Virus record (IMG/VR): IMGVR_UViG_2778261122_000001
Location: 1-61,573 of that record
Source: a virus
Lineage: Duplodnaviria; Heunggongvirae; Uroviricota; Caudoviricetes
DNA: 61,573 nt
Strand: one strand, 5' to 3'
In this document: piece after piece, positions 3,106-38,042 of the stretch
How positions within the stretch are numbered: the stretch's first letter is position 1
Layout of the letters: each line of letters begins with the position of its first letter
Program-made: the position numbers and the translations under genes
The notes under the pieces: model-generated
What the model was told of the DNA's origin: nothing
Database searches by the model: none
What the model saw: the letters and a program-made list of their open reading frames with translations, nothing else

Positions 3106-3434
3106 CAGTTCACCACCTGTTCAAACTCTGCGCTGAACTCAACACGCAGCATACTGACCCGCGACGACCATTTTGCGCAGGTCACCTTTATCTGCCGCCA
3201 CTCATAAGGCGGCGTCCACAGGAAGGCTTTCCAGCCCCCGTGCTCAGCCAGAAACGACTCCAGCGCCGTGGCCTCCCAACGGGGAACAGAAAGCGTCACG
3301 CTGTACGTTTTCAGGTCGGCATTCAGCCCGGCAGGCGCTCGCTGGGAATAGCCATCACCAAAGCGCACTTTCCTGACGGAAGGGGCCGAAGCCACATCCA
3401 TACCGGGTTTCACTTTCCAGCGGAAGGTCTTCAT
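3105..3434 (-). CDS. M: Minor tail protein M
   Basis: 109 aa, lambda gpM size and position. Confidence 0.9.
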   Translation of the reverse strand: MKTFRWKVKPGMDVASAPSVRKVRFGDGYSQRAPAGLNADLKTYSVTLSVPRWEATALESFLAEHGGWKAFLWTPPYEWRQIKVTCAKWSSRVSMLRVEFSAEFEQVVN

Positions 3435-5992
3435 CGCCCACCTCCGGAGAACAGACCACCATCACGCATCTGCCCGGTCACAACATCCATTGCCGCCTTA
3501 CGGGCTACGTCATAAACAGCCTTCAGCGCCTGTGGCCCTATCTGACCGTTCGTGCCGTCGTTGTTAATCACCACATGGTTATTCTGCTCAAACGTCCCGG
3601 ACGCCTGCGACCGACTGTCCGCCATGCTGCCCGGTGTACCGACATAACCGCCGGTGGCATAGCCGCGCATCAGCCGGTAAAGATTCCCCACGCCAATCCG
3701 GCTGGTTGCCTCCTTCGTGAAGACAAATTCACCACGGTGAACAATCCCCGCTGGCTCATATTTGCCGCCGGTTCCCGTAAATCCTCCGGTCGCAAAATGG
3801 AGTTTCGCCGCAGCTGCCTGAATGGCTGTACCGCCTGACGCTGATGCGCCACCACTGGCAGCACCGCCAATGGCGCTGCCGATACTCCCGACAATCCCCA
3901 CCATTGCCTGCTTAAGCAGAATTTCTGTCATCATGGACAGCACGGAACGGGTGAAGCTGCGCCAGTTCTGTTCACTGCCGGTCAGCATCGCCGCCATATT
4001 CTGTGCAATACCATCAAAGGTCTGCGTGGCTGCACTTTTAACCTGCGACATACTGTCCGTGGCGCTCTCTTCCCACTCACTCCAGCCTGACCTGAGGCCT
4101 GCCATCCAGCTCCCGCGAAGCAGGTCTTCAGCCGCCCAGGTCTTTTTCTGCTCTGACATGACGTTATTCAGCGCCAGAGGATTATCGCCATACTGTTCCT
4201 TCAGGCGCTGTTCTGTGGCTTCCCGCGCTGCCTGCCGGTCAGTCAGCCCCCGGCTTTTCGCATCAATGGCGGCCCGTTTTGCCCGTTGCTGCTGTGCGAA
4301 TTTATCCGCCTGCTGCGCCAGCGCATTCAGGCGCTCCTGATACGTGACCTTATCGCCAAGTGCAGCCAGCTGGCGTTTGTACTCCAGCGTCTCATCTTTA
4401 TGCGCCAGCAGGGATTTCTCCTGTGCGGACAGCTGGCGACGTTGTGCCGCCTCCTCCAGTACCGCGAACTGACTCTCCGCCTTCCACAAATCCCGGCGCT
4501 GCTGGCTGATTTTCTCATTCGCTCCGGCATGCTTCTCCAGCGTCCGGAGTTCTGCCTGAAGCGTCAGCAGGGCAGCATGAGCACTGTCTTCCTGACGATC
4601 GCCCGCAGACACCTTCACGCCGGACTGTTTCGGCTTTTTCAGCGTCGCTTCATAGTCCTTTTTCGCCGCCGCCATCAGCGTGTTGTAATCTGCCTGCAGG
4701 ATTTTCCCGTCTTTCAGTGCCTTATTCAGTTCTTCCTGACGGGCGGTATATTTCTCCAGCGGCGTCTGCAGGCGTTCGTAAGCCTTCTGCGCCTCTTCGG
4801 TATATTTCAGCCGTGACGCTTCGGTATCGCTCTGCTGCTGCGCATTTTTGTCCTGTTGAGTCTGCTGCTCAGCCTTCTTTCTCGCGGCTTCAAGCGCAAG
4901 ACGGGCCTTTTCACGATCATCCCAGTAACGCGCCCGCGCTTCATCGTTAACAAAATAATCATCCTTGCGCAGACTCCAGATGTCGTCCGCTTTCTTAAAC
5001 GCAGCCTCTGCCTTAATCAGCATCTCCTGCGTGGTATCAGGACGACCAATATCCAGCACCGCATCCCACATGGATTTGAATGCCCGCGCTGTCCTGTCTG
5101 CCCAGGTCTCCAGCGTACCCATGTTCTCTTTCAGGCGGCGGGTCTGGTCATCAAACCCTTTCGTCGCGGCCTCGTTCGCCGCCTGCAATGCCCCGGCTTC
5201 ATCGCCGGAACGCTGCAACTGAGCAACATACGCAATCTGCTCCGCCGTCACGTTATGGAACTGACGTGCCATCGCTGTCAGTCCCGACGTCGGGTCTGTG
5301 GTCAGCTTCCCGAAGGCTTCAGCGACCTTGTCCACCTCCACGCCGGATGCAGAGGAGAAACGCGCCACACTCTGGCTGATCGCCTCAAACTGCTCACCAC
5401 CACGCACACCTGCATTCACCAGCGCCGTCAGTGACTCGCTGGTCTGGTTAAACGTCAGCCCTGCCGCCTGCCCGGCTCTGGACAGGACCAGCATACGATC
5501 TGCCGTCAGACCCGACTGATTGCCGGAAAGGACCAGCGTTTTGTTGAAATCGGACAGGGTTGAGTTGCCCTGATACCAGGCATACGCCAGCGCACCGGTC
5601 GCCACCGCCAGCGAGGTGGCCCCGACCATCGGCAGGGTGATCGCACCGGCAAGCCCTCTGAACATGGGGATCATCCCGCCGAAGGAGTCCTTCACCTGAC
5701 CACCCTGTTGCAGCAGGATCAGCCACGGACTTTGCCCGCCTGCAAGCTGCGTGGCCACGTCGGTGAACTGCGCAGGCAGCATACGCATGGCGGCTTTATA
5801 CTGCCCGACGGAAATCCCCGCTTTCTGTGCAGCCAGTGCCTGTCGGCTCAGCGACTGTTCAACGACTGCCGCTGTTTTTTTCGCATCACTTTCCGTACCG
5901 GAAAAATGACGCCTGACTCTGGCCATCTGCTCGTCAAATCTGGCCGCATCCAGACTTAAATCAACGACCAGATCGCCTACCGGTTCAGCCAT
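3431..5992 (-). CDS. H: Tail tape measure protein H
   Basis: 853 aa, same length as lambda gpH; long coiled-coil middle, Gly-rich C-terminus. Confidence 0.9.
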   Translation of the reverse strand: MAEPVGDLVVDLSLDAARFDEQMARVRRHFSGTESDAKKTAAVVEQSLSRQALAAQKAGISVGQYKAAMRMLPAQFTDVATQLAGGQSPWLILLQQGGQVKDSFGGMIPMFRGLAGAITLPMVGATSLAVATGALAYAWYQGNSTLSDFNKTLVLSGNQSGLTADRMLVLSRAGQAAGLTFNQTSESLTALVNAGVRGGEQFEAISQSVARFSSASGVEVDKVAEAFGKLTTDPTSGLTAMARQFHNVTAEQIAYVAQLQRSGDEAGALQAANEAATKGFDDQTRRLKENMGTLETWADRTARAFKSMWDAVLDIGRPDTTQEMLIKAEAAFKKADDIWSLRKDDYFVNDEARARYWDDREKARLALEAARKKAEQQTQQDKNAQQQSDTEASRLKYTEEAQKAYERLQTPLEKYTARQEELNKALKDGKILQADYNTLMAAAKKDYEATLKKPKQSGVKVSAGDRQEDSAHAALLTLQAELRTLEKHAGANEKISQQRRDLWKAESQFAVLEEAAQRRQLSAQEKSLLAHKDETLEYKRQLAALGDKVTYQERLNALAQQADKFAQQQRAKRAAIDAKSRGLTDRQAAREATEQRLKEQYGDNPLALNNVMSEQKKTWAAEDLLRGSWMAGLRSGWSEWEESATDSMSQVKSAATQTFDGIAQNMAAMLTGSEQNWRSFTRSVLSMMTEILLKQAMVGIVGSIGSAIGGAASGGASASGGTAIQAAAAKLHFATGGFTGTGGKYEPAGIVHRGEFVFTKEATSRIGVGNLYRLMRGYATGGYVGTPGSMADSRSQASGTFEQNNHVVINNDGTNGQIGPQALKAVYDVARKAAMDVVTGQMRDGGLFSGGGR

Positions 5993-24476: not shown

Positions 24477-25472
24477 TCAGGCCAGCACGCCAATTGCCAG
24501 CGCACGATCGATAAAACGAAATATCAGCTCCAGCTGGGAGCCATACATCTCTTCAAATGCCACGGTATCCGCATGCAGCTCGTCGTGATGCTTTCTGCAC
24601 AAAGGCAACACAAAGAGGTCATGCGCTTTTGTACCCATTCCACCCTGACCGTGACCTATCAGGTGGTGGGGATCATCAGCAGGCTTTCCACAACATGCAC
24701 ACGGCTGTGTCTTAACCCAGCGCGTGTACTTTTCATTAACCCAGCGGCGACGTTTTGGGCGTAACATAAAAGACTCCGGCGACTCTGGATCCACTTTCAG
24801 CGCCAGCACCTTTTTCGCTTTATCCTGGATAATGCTGGTGGCAGGAACCGAAGGAACAAGGTCACTCTCCCGGGTGACAGACGGCACAACAGGCTTCGGT
24901 AATCTCAGTGCCTTACGGGCTGCACTTTCCGGTAAGGCATCCGCCAGGTCATTACGAACCAGCCACCAGCACAGTTCCGGCATTGTCACAACGTGACTAT
25001 CATCAAAACCGAGATCACGGCGCACAACAGATAACACCCAGCGGGCACAGCTATCCGTTGCCATTGATTCCAGCCGTTCCGTGAACTGATCGCGCAGCTG
25101 GTTATCGCAGTGCCAGCACAGACGGATTGCGCCCGGCGCGTGTCGCATTGTGGTCATGTTCTCGCTGTGCCAGTCGGAATGAGGCCACTGGCAGCCTTTT
25201 TCACGAAGTAACCAGCTTTCAAGACATTCCACGCCACCAGCACGACGGATCACTGCCTCATTGCGGAACACGGCCCGAACGGCAGGATCATCCGCCAGCG
25301 GTTGTGATGCCGCCGGAACGGCACCACTGGCGAAAGATGAATAACGTTCCGGCTCAGGCTCCAGCAGGACACGCCCCTGCATAAACAGGGGCATCAGCTC
25401 TGAACCTGGCCTGAACAATACGATCCCCATACGCGGGGCAATTTCAGGGGTCAGTAGTGCTCTCACGGTCAC
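24477..25472 (-). CDS. nin-region protein with C-terminal Cys/His-rich HNH-like motif
   Basis: 331 aa; C-terminal [28 protein letters not shown]...CRKHHDELH. Confidence 0.55.
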
Positions 25473-27481: not shown

Positions 27482-28419
27482 CCCCTGAATCCTGCCGGGA
27501 TCTGGCTGTAGTCCACATTGTCGTAACTGGCTTTGAAGTACGGGTCTTCGCGTTTTTCTGTGTACGTGCTGACGGACGGCGATAAGCGCAGGGAAAGTTC
27601 ATCCCATTTTTCCCGCAGCTTCGACGGGCTGAACACGTTACGGCACCAGAACGGGTCGCGGCTGACGCGGCTGTACATCTCGCAGATTTGTTTGTGGGTA
27701 CGACCGTCCTGTACACACATCAGGCGAATTTCATTTGCCCAGGCTGTCCAGTTCGGTTCTTTGGGACGAACCACCTCGCCGTCACATTCGGCGGCCTGCT
27801 CGTACAGGGCGATGATTTTTTTCCAGAGCCACTGTGCGCAGGTCAAATCATCCTGCGTTCCCCACTGGCGCTTTTTAGGGCTGAATACAACCGCATCAGG
27901 ATGGCGAGTTAAAAAATCCTGTTCAGCCTTCTGCATGTCCGGTTGCGAAGCGTCCGGACGAGAAGGTTTTTTATCTGACGGATCATGTTTTGATTTTACT
28001 GACGGATCCCCGCCAGATTCTGACGGGTGAAAACCCGCTTTTTTGCCAGATTTCGACGCATCAAATTTTGACGGGTCAGATTTTGATGCGTCAGATTTTG
28101 ACGGGTCAGAATCTGACAGTTGAGAAAATGCCGCTGCCTGAAGCTTCGCAACGTTAAGCTGATAAACATTCGACGCATTGCGGTTACCCTGGCGACGCGC
28201 CTTACGCGTTAACCAGCCTTCTGCTTCCAGCCGTGCGATAGCCGTTCTGACGGTGCTCATCCCCGCGCCAATCTGGCGGGCAATGGTTTCAATTGATGGC
28301 CAGCACACACCTTCGTCATTACTGAAATCAGCCAGGCGGGCCATAATTGCCACGCTGGATAACTTCATGCCTGACGCAGCGCAACCATCCCATACATAGC
28401 CGGTTAATTTAGTGCTCAT
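27478..28419 (-). CDS. Replication initiator protein (origin iterons inside the gene)
   Basis: 313 aa; N-terminal HTH-like region, linker SDPSKSDASKSDPSKFDASKSG encoded by the DNA iterons; lambda-O-like architecture. Confidence 0.65.
   Translation of the reverse strand: MSTKLTGYVWDGCAASGMKLSSVAIMARLADFSNDEGVCWPSIETIARQIGAGMSTVRTAIARLEAEGWLTRKARRQGNRNASNVYQLNVAKLQAAAFSQLSDSDPSKSDASKSDPSKFDASKSGKKAGFHPSESGGDPSVKSKHDPSDKKPSRPDASQPDMQKAEQDFLTRHPDAVVFSPKKRQWGTQDDLTCAQWLWKKIIALYEQAAECDGEVVRPKEPNWTAWANEIRLMCVQDGRTHKQICEMYSRVSRDPFWCRNVFSPSKLREKWDELSLRLSPSVSTYTEKREDPYFKASYDNVDYSQIPAGFRG
27970..28130. repeat. Origin iterons: about eight direct repeats of a ~15-16-bp unit (ATTTTGACGGGTCAG-like)
   Basis: Visible tandem units gattttgacgggtcag, attttgatgcgtcag, attttgacgggtcag, aatctgacag inside the replication gene. 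Confidence 0.7.
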
Positions 28420-29315: not shown

Positions 29316-29568
29316 GGTTCACCTCCTGTTCCTGTGGTTTAAACCCATTCTGGTTTTGGCTAGATTGAAAACGTGCCGGATAAAGAATCTGCATTTCGCT
29401 GATTTCACCCTTAAAAAAATTGGCTAAACGTTCTGCAAGCTCGATAGATGGAATCTGTTCCAGCCTCTCAATACGACTCAACGTCGCTGGATTGACTTGA
29501 ACACCCGCAGCAACATGCTGCAAAGTGAAACCATGCGCCTTACGCACATTTCGTAATGGTGATTGCAT
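29308..29568 (-). CDS. cro: Cro-like HTH repressor
   Basis: 86 aa, HTH pattern, divergent from cI. Confidence 0.65.
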   Translation of the reverse strand: MQSPLRNVRKAHGFTLQHVAAGVQVNPATLSRIERLEQIPSIELAERLANFFKGEISEMQILYPARFQSSQNQNGFKPQEQEVNRG

Positions 29569-29665
29569 ATAACCTCCAAATATTGCGCGTTATGCATGTT
29601 ATTTCACGCAAGTATTTTGCGCAAGTTGATTTGCTTATCACGCAATAAAGAAATGTAATAAACGC
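29569..29665. promoter_or_regulatory. Divergent immunity promoter/operator region (PR/PRM-like)
   Basis: 97-bp gap between divergent cro and cI with repeated TTGCGC / CACGCAA half-site motifs. Confidence 0.6.
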
Positions 29666-30358
29666 ATGAACATAGGAAACCGAGTCAGACAACTTCGCCA
29701 AGCGAAGAACATGAAAATCGCCGATCTCGCTGAAGCAATAGGAGTAGATGCGGCGAACATCTCGCGCTTAGAAACGGGTAAGCAGAAACAATTTACCGAA
29801 CAAACACTGAGTAATATTGCCAAGAGCTTAGGTGTTGATATTGCTGATCTCTTTACCTCTGCCCTCAAAAGCAATACTGTATATAAAAACAGTAATGATG
29901 AGGATGTTGCGCAGGTGAAGGATGTGTTCCGTATTGAAATGCTGGATATCAGTGCCAGTGCGGGAAATGGCCTTATCCAGGGCGGTGATGTCATTGATGT
30001 GATTCATGCCATCGAATACAGAACTGATAATGCTGTATCAATGTTCGGCGGACGACCAGCCAATCACATCAAAGTTATCAACGTTCGTGGGGACAGTATG
30101 TGTCCAACCATTGAGCCAGGAGATCTCATCTTCGTTGATGTCAGCATCAATCAGTTTGATGGTGATGGTATATATGTCTTTGGTTTTGATGACAAAATAT
30201 ACGTTAAAAGACTTCAAATGATTCCTGACAAACTGCTGGTGATTTCTGATAACCAGATTTACCGTGAATGGGGAATTACTAGCGAAAACGAACACCGATT
30301 CATGGTCTTTGGAAAGGTCTTAATCAGTCAGTCGCAAACCCTTAAGAGACATAATTAA
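29666..30358 (+). CDS. cI: CI-type prophage repressor (HTH plus S24 LexA-like autopeptidase)
   Basis: N-terminal HTH; C-terminal GDSM Ser and VKRL Lys of the S24 dyad. Confidence 0.85.
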   Translation: MNIGNRVRQLRQAKNMKIADLAEAIGVDAANISRLETGKQKQFTEQTLSNIAKSLGVDIADLFTSALKSNTVYKNSNDEDVAQVKDVFRIEMLDISASAGNGLIQGGDVIDVIHAIEYRTDNAVSMFGGRPANHIKVINVRGDSMCPTIEPGDLIFVDVSINQFDGDGIYVFGFDDKIYVKRLQMIPDKLLVISDNQIYREWGITSENEHRFMVFGKVLISQSQTLKRHN

Positions 30359-30377
30359 CTTCAATATCCCATCCATC

Positions 30378-30399
30378 GGCCACCGAAAGGTGGCTTTTT
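30378..30399 (+). terminator. Intrinsic terminator downstream of cI
   Basis: GGCCACC-gaaa-GGTGGC hairpin followed by TTTTT. Confidence 0.6.
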
Positions 30400-30685
30400 A
30401 TCACCCATCATTTTGCACATCTCGCAAAATATTACTTGCGCATTTCGCATTTTAATTTTATCTTTTGTTCCAGACCAACTACAGGATTACAACAAAATCT
30501 GGTTGCAACACGGTGCATGGTGCATGTGTCGTAAGCGGTCAGTAAATGTCAAAAACGAACAGTCAGGACGACCAAGAAGTAGCCGCCTTGGGCATATGAA
30601 GTCCAAGATGATTCGTTAGCAACAAAAAAGCGCCCTATAGGACGCTTCGCTCTTTAACAATCTGGATATCCACAACAGTAGCAAT

Positions 30686-31167
30686 CTACAGATTGCCGTT
30701 AAGTTTTCTGGCCAACTCCTCAATGGATGGAGGCGATACGTAATCCGGATTTTTATTCATCAGAAACTTATTTTCACAGTGGAGGCACCTGCTTTTATGA
30801 AAAAGCTCATCTTCGCTAACCGGGAATGGTTGAAGTATCGATACTATCTTTTGTCCAAAACATTTTGGGCAAAGATGCATGGTTATGCTGCCACCGTTCA
30901 CGATTACCTCCTTCGAGTATACAAAAGTACCCGACTCAAGTTGGTTAAGGATATAGCCTTCCGTCTGAGCCTCAAAGTTTTCGAATTCTGCAATTTTAGC
31001 TTTGAGAGAAGCATTTATTTCTTGATAAGAGCCCACCAGTTCAACGAGAGACACGCATTCGCGCTGAATAGACGCAAGCTTTGAGTTCAGCTCACCAATA
31101 GCCGCATTTACTTCAGCTTGAGTTTTTGCCTCGTTCATTAGTTTTGCAATCTGGGCTGTTTCACGAA
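30686..31167 (-). CDS. Hypothetical coiled-coil protein with C-terminal CPKC...CLHC zinc-ribbon-like motif
   Basis: Start trimmed to MTAIRETAQ; upstream in-frame extension crosses hairpin-rich GC-rich DNA and is probably non-coding. Confidence 0.45.
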
Positions 31168-31214
31168 TAGCCGTCATTGCTGCCGTTAATTCAGCGATCA
31201 CATTGAATACTCTT

Positions 31215-31268
31215 ATTGTTGTTGGGGATATCCAGATTAACCGAATCCTTGTTGTTGGGGAATAACCA
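31215..31268. repeat. Two direct repeats of TTGTTGTTGGGGA(T/A)ATA(T/A)CCAG, 33 bp apart
   Basis: 31215..31234 and 31248..31268 share 18 of 20 positions; lie 50-100 bp upstream of the 30686..31167 gene. Confidence 0.5.
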
Positions 31269-31486
31269 GGTCCACCTCGCCTGATGTGGCTAAAAGCAGG
31301 CACATAACAGCTAAGTATTTTCAACCAGAGAGAATCCTTAGCGTTGTGGTGAATGCGGCTCAGCGCACGCGGGTTAAGGTTGAGGCTGACAGTCGACCTT
31401 CTGTGGATACCCACCCGCCTGGTGTGCAACCTTCGCCAGGCACCGGGAGGCACCCGGCACCACAACTTTATGCTGTGTGTAGTCCT

Positions 31487-31621
31487 GGCGGTACCAGTTT
31501 GTACCCTTGCTTCCGGCTGGTACCGTCCTTTTTACAAAACAGAGAAGAGCCTCACCGGACGACGGGCTCATAACCCAATCCATCCGGGCGGCTGCCACCG
31601 CAGGTGTTCTTCTCTGTTTTG
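31487..31621 (+). other. Hairpin-dense GC-rich noncoding element (candidate structured RNA)
   Basis: GGCGGTACCAG/CTGGTACCG stem followed by TTTTT (31487..31533), then a perfect 14-bp inverted repeat CAAAACAGAGAAGA/TCTTCTCTGTTTTG around a 59-nt loop (31535..31621); strand unknown. Confidence 0.35.
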
Positions 31622-31746
31622 TGGAGAAACTAACCGCCCCTACGGGGGCATTTATGGAAATGTAATTGACTCAATAATCGCCGGACGGTGAGGGCTTCCT
31701 TTTACCCGAATTCAGCGCGGTGCAGCGCATATACGTGGAGAACAAA

Positions 31747-32283
31747 ATGTCATTTATTAAAACTTTTTCCGGGAAGCATTTTTATTATGACAGGATAAAT
31801 AAAGACGACATCGTTATTAACGATATCGCGGTTTCCCTTTCAAATATCTGTCGCTTTGCAGGACATCTTTCACACTTCTACAGTGTCGCCCAACATGCGG
31901 TGCTTTGCAGCCAGCTGGTGCCGCAGGAATTTGCTTTTGAAGCTTTAATGCATGATGCAACAGAAGCATATTGCCAGGACATCCCCGCACCACTGAAACG
32001 ACTTCTTCCTGACTATAAACGGATGGAAGAAAAAATAGACGCCGTAATCCGTGAGAAATACGGGTTACCTCCTGTTATGAGCACGCCAGTGAAATATGCC
32101 GATCTCATTATGCTGGCAACCGAACGCCGCGATCTCGGGCTTGATGATGGCTCTTTCTGGCCTGTGCTGGAAGGTATCCCGGCAACAGAGATGTTCAACG
32201 TGATTCCACTGGCTCCAGGCCATGCCTACGGGATGTTTATGGAACGCTTTAACGAATTATCGGAGTTACGCAAATGCGCATGA
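31747..32283 (+). CDS. HD-domain phosphohydrolase
   Basis: Start trimmed to MSFIKTF after GGAGAA; H...HD metal-binding pattern (FAGHLSHFYSVAQHAV...LMHDATEAY). Confidence 0.75.
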   Translation: MSFIKTFSGKHFYYDRINKDDIVINDIAVSLSNICRFAGHLSHFYSVAQHAVLCSQLVPQEFAFEALMHDATEAYCQDIPAPLKRLLPDYKRMEEKIDAVIREKYGLPPVMSTPVKYADLIMLATERRDLGLDDGSFWPVLEGIPATEMFNVIPLAPGHAYGMFMERFNELSELRKCA

Positions 32284-37755: not shown

Positions 37756-37817
37756 GTCAATATTTCCTAATCCGATTTGTTGATACCGAAGCCCTGACTG
37801 TTACCGCAGTTGGGGCT

Positions 37818-38042
37818 TCAACTTTTCACTTCTTTAAAGTGCCTACCTTCTACAGTTGCTCTGAGATAAAAATTCTTATCTTTACCGTTTAGTGCTTCCC
37901 AAGCATCAACAATGCACTTATTACAGATGTGGACTTCTCGATAACCAATAGCTTTCCTGTCAATATTAGTGAACATAACAGTTTCTTTATCTGTCAATGT
38001 GGATGCATGACAGAAGTCGCAATCTATATAAGATACCTTCAT
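37818..38042 (-). CDS. Hypothetical Cys-rich protein inserted between arc and ant
   Basis: 74 aa with CDFC...CNKC spacing. Confidence 0.35.
   Translation of the reverse strand: MKVSYIDCDFCHASTLTDKETVMFTNIDRKAIGYREVHICNKCIVDAWEALNGKDKNFYLRATVEGRHFKEVKS

Follow-up and report, generated by a model that had tools for sequence, protein, structure and literature searches.

A 580-bp region (positions 31168-31746, + strand) of the IMG/VR virus record IMGVR_UViG_2778261122_000001 (Caudoviricetes), which a sequence-only reading had singled out as non-coding and dense in hairpins and repeats, was analysed together with its homologues. The window is the whole stretch of DNA that was analysed (61,573 nt), and all coordinates refer to it unless another locus is named. 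The region lies in the early-left arm of a prophage and is the distal part of an untranslated leader of about 1.3 kb that belongs to the early-left promoter (pL), is interrupted by a moron and is built of exchangeable RNA modules. By sequence comparison, these modules include a divergent member of the STnc100 small-RNA family, with an intrinsic terminator at its end. Directly downstream lies a three-way-junction RNA, here called element D, which is well supported by covariation as a conserved RNA new to Rfam.

Organization and distribution of the early-left leader

The neighbouring genes mark the prophage as lambdoid and of the SfV/SfII/SfIV/ST64B/CPS-53 kind. On the - strand are a cII-like gene and cro, and cI (29666-30358, +) is followed by its terminator at 30378-30395. 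Just past this terminator, at 30400-30470 (+), are operator-like repeats, TTTTGCACATCTCGCAAAATA and TTACTTGCGCATTTCGCA, and a candidate promoter, TTGCGC-17-TATCTT. As the repeats at 30400-30450 resemble the right operator (OR) repeats between cI and cro (29585-29650), the left operator (OL) and pL were placed here, reading rightward. By this analogy, pL would lie at about 30470. Between the cI terminator and the region of interest is the moron (30686-31178, -), and downstream of the region come a yfdR-like HD-domain gene (31747-32283, +), a DUF551 gene, a yfdT-like gene, xis and int. The product of the yfdR-like gene gave weak, sub-threshold Pfam matches to YfbR-like and HD_3, and a homologue is named yfdR in RefSeq. 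The spacer and ribosome-binding site of this gene, GGAGAACAAAATG, occupy 31650-31746 (+).

A common order of cI, terminator, operators/pL, a conserved pL-proximal RNA (element A), terminator, element D, a short element E and the first gene was found in SfV, SfIV, ST64B, phiNP and dozens of IMG/VR contigs. Neither a moron nor any annotated gene is present in ST64B and phiNP in the 0.8-1.0 kb that separate cI from sb37, their first early-left gene, and the region was therefore assigned to a long untranslated pL leader. The sequence-only reading had offered a structured RNA acting as a regulatory leader for the downstream HD-domain operon as one hypothesis, and the arrangement on the + strand, with the yfdR-like gene first, agrees with it.

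Matching DNA was present in 3114 of 5426 complete Escherichia coli genomes, that is in more than half of them, where it is unannotated or mis-annotated as a frameshifted pseudogene. It was also present in 82-97 phage records, and many phages of Shigella, Salmonella, Citrobacter and Klebsiella have related leaders. Identity to SfV was 96% across 31272-31647, and in SfV and SfIV the sequence matching 31636 onward lies 1.3 kb further along. The phage records therefore matched in two places each. This was considered as a duplication in the style of the HK022 putL/putR pair and rejected, the second place being the start of yfdR, which two additional genes have moved away. Within the window, each module was found only once.

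Non-coding status and folding

The four open reading frames in the region (52-112 amino acids) had no Pfam match, and stop codons interrupted all six frames in 11 of 11 leaders, comprising the window and ten diverse homologues. This bears out the sequence-only reading, which had seen no convincing open reading frame. Existing annotation suggests a decayed protein-coding gene: PGAP calls a 'frameshifted hypothetical protein' on the region in RefSeq, and the hypothetical genes SfIV_34 and SfIV_35 of the SfIV record overlap it. Against this stand the six-frame stops, the lack of any Pfam match, conservation in the form of compensatory base pairing and insertions and deletions that are not multiples of three. 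A protein-coding reading of the region is excluded, which leaves a decayed gene with next to no chance of being the explanation. Two such annotations fall on the STnc100-like RNA described below, namely the pseudogene at 3129-3448 of locus L241 (E. coli PCN061) and the open reading frames SfIV_34 and SfIV_35 (L001, 5904-6816); both are very likely spurious.

The stability expected from the many hairpins was borne out by RNA folding. The + strand RNA of the region had a minimum free energy of -215.4 kcal/mol compared with -187.5 ± 7.4 kcal/mol for dinucleotide shuffles (z = -3.77), and none of 100 shuffles was as good. The effect was weaker for the - strand (z = -2.01). The direct repeats, terminator, inverted repeat and GC-rich hairpin that had been picked out were all present where the sequence-only reading had placed them.

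A divergent STnc100-type module closed by an intrinsic terminator

The segment 31313-31535 (+), with its core at 31343-31466, matched the Rfam covariance model of the STnc100/PasD family (RF02076) over its full length (positions 1-206 of 206) with 43.1 bits and E = 1.7e-7, which is below the gathering score of 47. Copies of the same subtype scored in a similar range of 35-48 bits (L014, 47.8; L038, 39.3; ST64B, 35.1), while the main-type STnc100 loci tested scored 60-92 bits. The core is closed by a GUGGUG/CACCAC helix in which GUUGUGGUG (31343-31351) pairs with CACCACAAC (31458-31466). Across 49 representatives with pairwise similarities below 80% (string-match ratio), the six core pairs of this helix were 94-100% paired, and position 5 covaried (G-C in 37, A-U in 6 and G-U in 3). 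The invariant 22-mer of the family, CACCGGGAGGCACCCGGCACCA, is exact at 31441-31462, and the invariant 3' hairpin CACCGGGAGGCACCCGG is also shared. When the 22-mer was used as a probe against a one-genome-per-species collection, 110 stretches were recovered, mostly from many genera of Enterobacteriaceae and a few from others.

The hairpin that follows the AAU junction (P2) is divergent. The window has GCG...CGC where main-type copies have CCC...GGG, so that in this minority 'GCG' subtype two of the three stem pairs read G-C instead of C-G; the loop, CUCAGCGCA, retains U.AGCG. Both the pairing register of P2 and its compensatory reading were judged by eye. The central hairpins also differ from those of the family, and a single-sequence fold of the module gave the same multi-branch shape. 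Taken together, the full-length model match, the closing helix, the 3' hairpin, the P2 loop, the 3' terminator and the prophage location identify 31313-31535, at the level of sequence comparison, as a divergent member of the STnc100 family, and its expression is predicted.

The module is preceded by a conserved segment (31272-31312, +) consisting of a CCACC...GUGG hairpin and then AAAAGCAGGC, which the minimal leader of L210 also has, immediately ahead of the terminator. A single strand, GCUGUGUGUAGUC (31464-31488, +), leads from the core to the terminator. The latter (31487-31533, +) has a 19-nt loop on an 11-bp stem (31487-31497/31517-31527) that contains one G-U pair, and ends in a CUUUUU run. 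It had been proposed as a GC-rich hairpin plus T-run, and the minimum-free-energy fold reproduced it. It closes the STnc100-like module, is included in the Rfam model and lies directly 5' of element D in nearly all homologues.

For members of this family elsewhere, expression is documented. Transcriptome reads were reported for 11 of 11 STnc100 copies in strain EDL933, one of which was confirmed by Northern blot (PMC5331693), and related PasD small RNAs were detected in enteropathogenic E. coli by Hfq RIL-seq (bioRxiv 10.64898/2026.05.13.724894). Evidence for Hfq association is available for other members (PMC12711010), and no function has been assigned to the family (PMC9029176).

These data also bear on the possibility that the module is a stand-alone gene for a trans-acting, Hfq-dependent small RNA, expressed in the lysogen from its own promoter, with the neighbouring hairpins having no role in cis. 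Main-type copies fit such a gene in that a sigma-70-like promoter was found just upstream in 33 of 92, compared with 16 of 102 shuffled upstream sequences, and their own terminator was found in 49 of 92. Moreover, every EDL933 copy is transcribed in lysogens (PMC5331693) and tandem arrays are known, such as the three copies in L031. The 'GCG' subtype departs from this pattern: no sigma-70 promoter was recognisable for the window copy or for any of ten copies of the subtype, and these copies sit inside leaders, downstream of cI-like genes, as with the cI-like helix-turn-helix genes in L013 and L038. Nor would a stand-alone gene explain why the order terminator-D-E is conserved in phiNP and L210, where the STnc100 core is absent. 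This alternative is therefore considered possible, although unlikely, for the window copy. The window copy is thus distinguished from its relatives by the sub-threshold score, the flipped P2, the different central hairpins, the lack of its own promoter and its embedding in a pL leader rather than a stand-alone position or one near Q or stx. The placement of one STnc100 subtype inside an operon leader suggests a link between phage induction and small-RNA production.

Several related sequences were noted in the retrieved loci. In phiNP (L119, about 3230-3330), the position of the STnc100 core is taken by another insert with two hairpins resembling tRNA T arms, GUCCGG-UUCGAUU-CCAGAC and GUCCG-UUCAAUU-CGGAC. 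Phage P1 carries 32 nt with 94% identity to the module's 5' part (L005, 2501-2532, in the ban operon between upl and tciA), and the P1-like plasmid phages SJ46, RCS47 and JL22 carry about 130 nt at 71% identity. Tandem arrays of two or three STnc100 genes, each within one prophage region of an enterobacterium, were seen beside isrI-like RNAs and a tRNA, at 6323-7018 of L031 (three copies) and at several sites of L021.

Element D, a conserved three-way-junction RNA

Immediately after the terminator, a perfect 14-bp inverted repeat enclosing 59 nt had been described. Its arms were found to be 15 bp (31534-31548/31608-31622), 59 nt apart, and to form part of a larger structure, element D (31534-31622, +). 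D is a three-way junction with a 20-bp helix P1 (31534-31553/31603-31622) and two arms, P2 (31555-31559/31583-31587) and the variable P3 (31588-31591/31598-31601). In 20 diverse aligned copies, the 32 pairs were 95% paired and nine of them showed compensatory changes, a result matched by none of 500 shuffles; slid-alignment controls gave 35-51% paired. RNAalifold independently returned the same fold. The covariation among homologues that the sequence-only reading had named as a check is therefore present for D. The most conserved stretch, ACGGGCTCATAANCCAATCCA, was found in more than 120 IMG/VR contigs. An Rfam scan had been named as a further check, and its outcome was divided: it returned STnc100 below the gathering score and no family for D, which had no match even at E <= 10 when 136 nt (31525-31660) were searched alone. 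On this evidence, D is a well-supported conserved RNA that is new to Rfam.

The architecture of this part of the leader recalls the immunity leader of P4, in which isrK (RF01394) with a terminator is followed by C4/CI (RF01695), a 17-bp stem enclosing two hairpins. In the window, D, with two arms enclosed by a 20-bp stem, comes after a terminator-bearing STnc100-like RNA, likewise in the leader of an early operon. Under a P4/P1-type RNA immunity, D would be a processed RNA of the CI/c4 kind whose loops pair with repeated targets in the leader and force premature termination. The resemblance is architectural only. No C4 or isrK was found in the window at the gathering score, and neither model matched over D even at E <= 10, while the positive controls for the two models gave 74.9 and 60.8 bits in P4 and 82.3 and 64.2 bits in SfV (27603-27791). 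The D loops showed no conserved complementarity to the flanking leader; the 8-nt matches found in cis, counting G-U pairs, fell at non-homologous places, and their duplex energies equalled those of shuffled controls. Furthermore, the real isrK and C4 of SfV lie inside an 'immunity region' gene (orf37) in the early-right arm, and those of ST64B are likewise on the pR side. An RNA immunity role for D is accordingly judged very improbable.

The isrK-C4 pairs themselves are located inside protein genes, orf37 in SfV (L004, 27603-27791) and sb41 in ST64B (L118, 909-1097, - strand), and the window prophage has no such pair. A 2007 paper on SfV by Roberts, Allison and Verma refers in its title to immunity mediated by transcription termination. 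An initial assignment of the region in the window to that SfV immunity locus, prompted by the 96% identity to SfV, was rejected because the SfV isrK/C4 module sits in orf37, in the early-right arm.

The tip of P2 carries CGGGCUCAUAACCC (31563-31576, +), whose 14 nt exactly match an E. coli tRNA-Met anticodon stem-loop with three G-C pairs and a CUCAUAA loop containing CAU. Across the 20 aligned homologues, these columns showed little or no variation. The matching tRNA is annotated as tRNA-Met, with a median of four matching places per E. coli genome, and is taken here, partly from this copy number, to be the initiator tRNA-fMet. Initiator tRNAs are characterised by an anticodon stem with three consecutive G-C pairs. 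In Klebsiella phages, the D core is found downstream of Q, where it immediately follows tRNA-Asn and tRNA-Arg in the manner of a third tRNA gene; its acceptor-like stem is short there, and its end is NCCA. D was nevertheless rejected as a tRNA: ARAGORN found no tRNA in the window and did not call the Klebsiella version, and RF00005 had no match over D or over the Klebsiella version (E <= 10).

D thus resembles tRNA-like elements and anticodon-arm mimics such as the thrS operator in carrying the anticodon arm on an extended arm of a three-way junction. It differs from a tRNA in lacking both the D and the T arm and in having, in the window, a 20-bp helix in place of the acceptor-like stem. We would tentatively entertain, while regarding it as doubtful, that D represents a new family of phage tRNA-like RNAs in which the invariant arm mimics initiator tRNA-fMet and engages an initiator-specific factor. 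Such an RNA would be made among the first phage transcripts, in the pL leader or, in the Klebsiella phages, in a late leader after tRNA genes. It might serve as a decoy for a PIN/VapC-type toxin that cleaves tRNA-fMet or for another anticodon nuclease, or it might be a ligand of the 30S P site/initiation factor 3 or of methionyl-tRNA synthetase that tunes translation of the adjacent first gene. If D does bind a factor specific for tRNA-fMet, it would represent a novel type of RNA mimic in phages. The leader context and elements A and D were absent from Rfam, and no description of them was found in the literature searched.

D is followed by element E (31623-31649, +), composed of UGGAGAAAC and a cUACGg hairpin at 31636-31649. 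The latter is the GCCCC-tac-GGGGC hairpin of the sequence-only reading, present as GCCCC-UACG-GGGGC with a UNCG-type tetraloop. It replaces a hairpin with a GCAG loop that relatives have after UGGAGAAAC, ahead of the Shine-Dalgarno sequence and ATG of an sb37/orf32-like gene. Compared with SfV, SfIV and ST64B, the window has lost the orf32/sb37-like and DUF2303/orf31 genes between E and yfdR; mapping against SfV positions 24640 and 23347 put the joint at the cUACGg hairpin, making E a mosaic and deletion joint. Because of this loss, yfdR comes next after the hairpin. D and E accompany the terminator also in phiNP and L210, which lack the STnc100 core.

Direct repeats and the moron

Two direct repeats were confirmed at 31216-31236 and 31249-31270, with starts 33 bp apart. 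Two further copies had been overlooked: a third, weaker one at 31332-31349 and an inverted copy of repeat 1 at 30659-30677 (19 nt, 95% complementary; similarity search E = 0.035). Since the inverted copy lies beyond the far side of the moron, the moron is bracketed by repeats, the 19-nt inverted pair being 30659-30677 and 31220-31238. The repeats resemble the first approximately 25 nt of the STnc100-like module (GAAUCCUU..GUUGUGGUGAAU at 31332-31358). Homology to SfIV begins at 31218 and that to SfV and SfII at 31272, which places the repeats at mosaic joints. From these sequence relationships, the repeats are read as degenerate duplicates of the 5' edge of the module, forming junction sequence probably left by insertion of the moron.

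It had been suggested that the repeats are an operator for the gene at 30686-31167. More broadly, they could be protein-binding sites, either as an operator of this - strand gene or as recombinase sites for moron swapping: they bracket the moron, hold a partial palindrome, GGATATCC, and are located where the moron promoter must be. SfIV, however, has the same direct and inverted repeat arrangement around other cargo genes, so the repeats are not specific to the - strand gene, and the operator proposal was not upheld. Their sequence relationship to the STnc100-like module (its first 25 nt), their absence from SfV and SfII (where homology starts at 31272) and the lack of a recombinase gene nearby also argue against binding sites, which are regarded as improbable.

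The moron is antisense to the pL transcript and encodes a 163-amino-acid, coiled-coil product with a C-terminal CxxC...CxxC motif. A known defence gene was considered and rejected, as no PADLOC family and no significant Pfam match were found.

Element A, boxA and antitermination

The phage group of SfII, SfIV and SfV is reported to lack N (PMC3851460). The observation in the sequence-only reading that the arm has no N-like antiterminator is in line with these reports, and no N-like Pfam match was found among the open reading frames tested, which were those in the leader and immediately downstream of it. Candidates that bear on how early-left transcripts of this group pass several strong terminators are element A, a boxA and the terminator at 31487-31533.

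Element A (30550-30620, +) consists of GAAGUAGCCGCC, a 5-bp stem arm, GCAUAUGAAGU, the other arm and GAUGAUUCG. The closing stem is ACGAA/UUCGU, in which one pair covaries (G-C in nine, A-U in six). In an alignment of copies recovered from the loci already retrieved, 91.6% of cells were paired, three of the five hairpin pairs were compensatory and the covariation score was reached by none of 500 shuffles; RNAalifold predicted the same hairpin. Element A was found directly after pL promoters with at least five types of flanking operator-like sequence. A scan of IMG/VR with a strict element A pattern gave one match only, which was unrelated.

Element A is followed at 30626-30660 (+) by a hairpin, which doubles as the terminator of the - strand moron, and then by a boxA, GCUCUUUAACAA (30649-30660). 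The boxA is an exact match to the rrn-type consensus, which is well established, and the sole one in the window. It precedes 0.5 kb of untranslated moron antisense that RNA polymerase must cross. The same hairpin and boxA occur in SfIV beside different cargo, and some other leaders have a boxA-like sequence; the boxA is absent from those of SfV, ST64B and phiNP. About 180 nt past the putative pL, the succession of hairpin and perfect rrn-type boxA resembles the boxB-boxA order of lambda nutL and of rrn antitermination leaders. The window differs from these in that the N gene is absent and the hairpin doubles as the moron terminator, and the boxA lies outside the 31168-31746 region. Element A and boxA are better candidates for antitermination than anything in that region, and element A is put forward as a possible cis element of early-left transcription in lambdoid phages that lack N.

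An antiterminator RNA like HK022 put, which makes RNA polymerase resistant to terminators without a protein, by way of the zinc-binding domain of the polymerase beta' subunit, had been proposed for 31168-31746. Points in its favour are the non-coding RNA in the early leader of a phage group without N (PMC3851460), the terminators in the way of xis and int, and a marginal match of 19 of 22 nt between putL 39-60 and 31362-31384. However, the RNA lies about 800 nt from pL, while putL starts at about +3 (PMC9378689), and it is single-copy, with no pR-side partner found in the window. The comparison of putL with the region scored 22, and 5 of 200 shuffles were as good, while putL scored 35 against putR (0 of 200). 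The matching stretch also folds differently, and the match is probably due to chance. The proposal was not sustained, and a put-like function of this RNA is rated as highly improbable. If any element has this role, element A is the more likely one, although it too shows no similarity to putL or putR (score of 13 against putL, with 77 of 200 shuffles as good).

Proposed function of the leader

The modules suggest a leader that acts as an attenuator. Transcription would start at pL (about 30470), pass element A and then the hairpin and rrn-type boxA, and traverse the - strand moron in antisense before reaching 31168-31746. There, the STnc100-like RNA would be made, its 3' end being set by the terminator at 31487-31533 acting as an attenuator. 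Most transcripts would stop near 31533 and yield an STnc100-type, Hfq-binding small RNA of about 200 nt, perhaps after 5' processing. Polymerases that read through, possibly helped by element A and/or by Nus factors recruited to boxA, would go on to make the very stable, tRNA-like three-way junction of D and hairpin E before the first early-left gene. D and E together might then form a cap in cis on the mRNA of the first gene that affects its processing, stability or translation.

This reading, comprising a modular pL leader, a small RNA, a terminator and D/E, is given a probability of roughly 0.55. Its anatomy is directly observed: the position and modular arrangement of the elements, their non-coding status, the conserved pairing with compensatory changes and the family resemblance. 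The assignment and use of the promoter, the efficiency of attenuation and termination, the release of the small RNA, antitermination and the role of D are inferred.

Several points weigh against it. The leader and its modules are known here from sequence alone. A promoter scan found no sigma-70 consensus promoter anywhere in 29400-32000, and the STnc100-like module, at 43.1 bits, does not reach the Rfam cut-off of 47. No alternative antiterminator pairing that competes with the terminator at 31487-31533 was found. The distance from pL is about 0.85 kb to the STnc100-like module and about 1 kb to the terminator, 0.5 kb of which is antisense to the moron, so a discrete 200-nt small RNA would need processing or an unrecognised promoter. 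Finally, the genes that normally follow D and E have been lost in the window, and both elements may therefore be relics in this prophage.

Among known systems, the proposed attenuator is closest in logic to leader-derived small RNAs, such as lambda 6S/tR', StxS and the short isoform of IsrK, since a strong terminator would release a stable structured RNA unless it is read through. Those leaders begin at a promoter directly upstream, whereas the closest promoter assigned in the window lies about 0.85 kb upstream. The leader could thus be a variant of phage leader attenuators combined with prophage small RNAs, and the anticodon-arm mimic could be new if it has a specific partner.

Outside this prophage, a sar RNA (RF00262), the antisense RNA of the P22-type immI region, was matched at 37757-37823 (+) of the window with 72.7 bits. 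It points to a second, P22-like prophage or an immI module about 3.4 kb past the integrase gene of the prophage described here.

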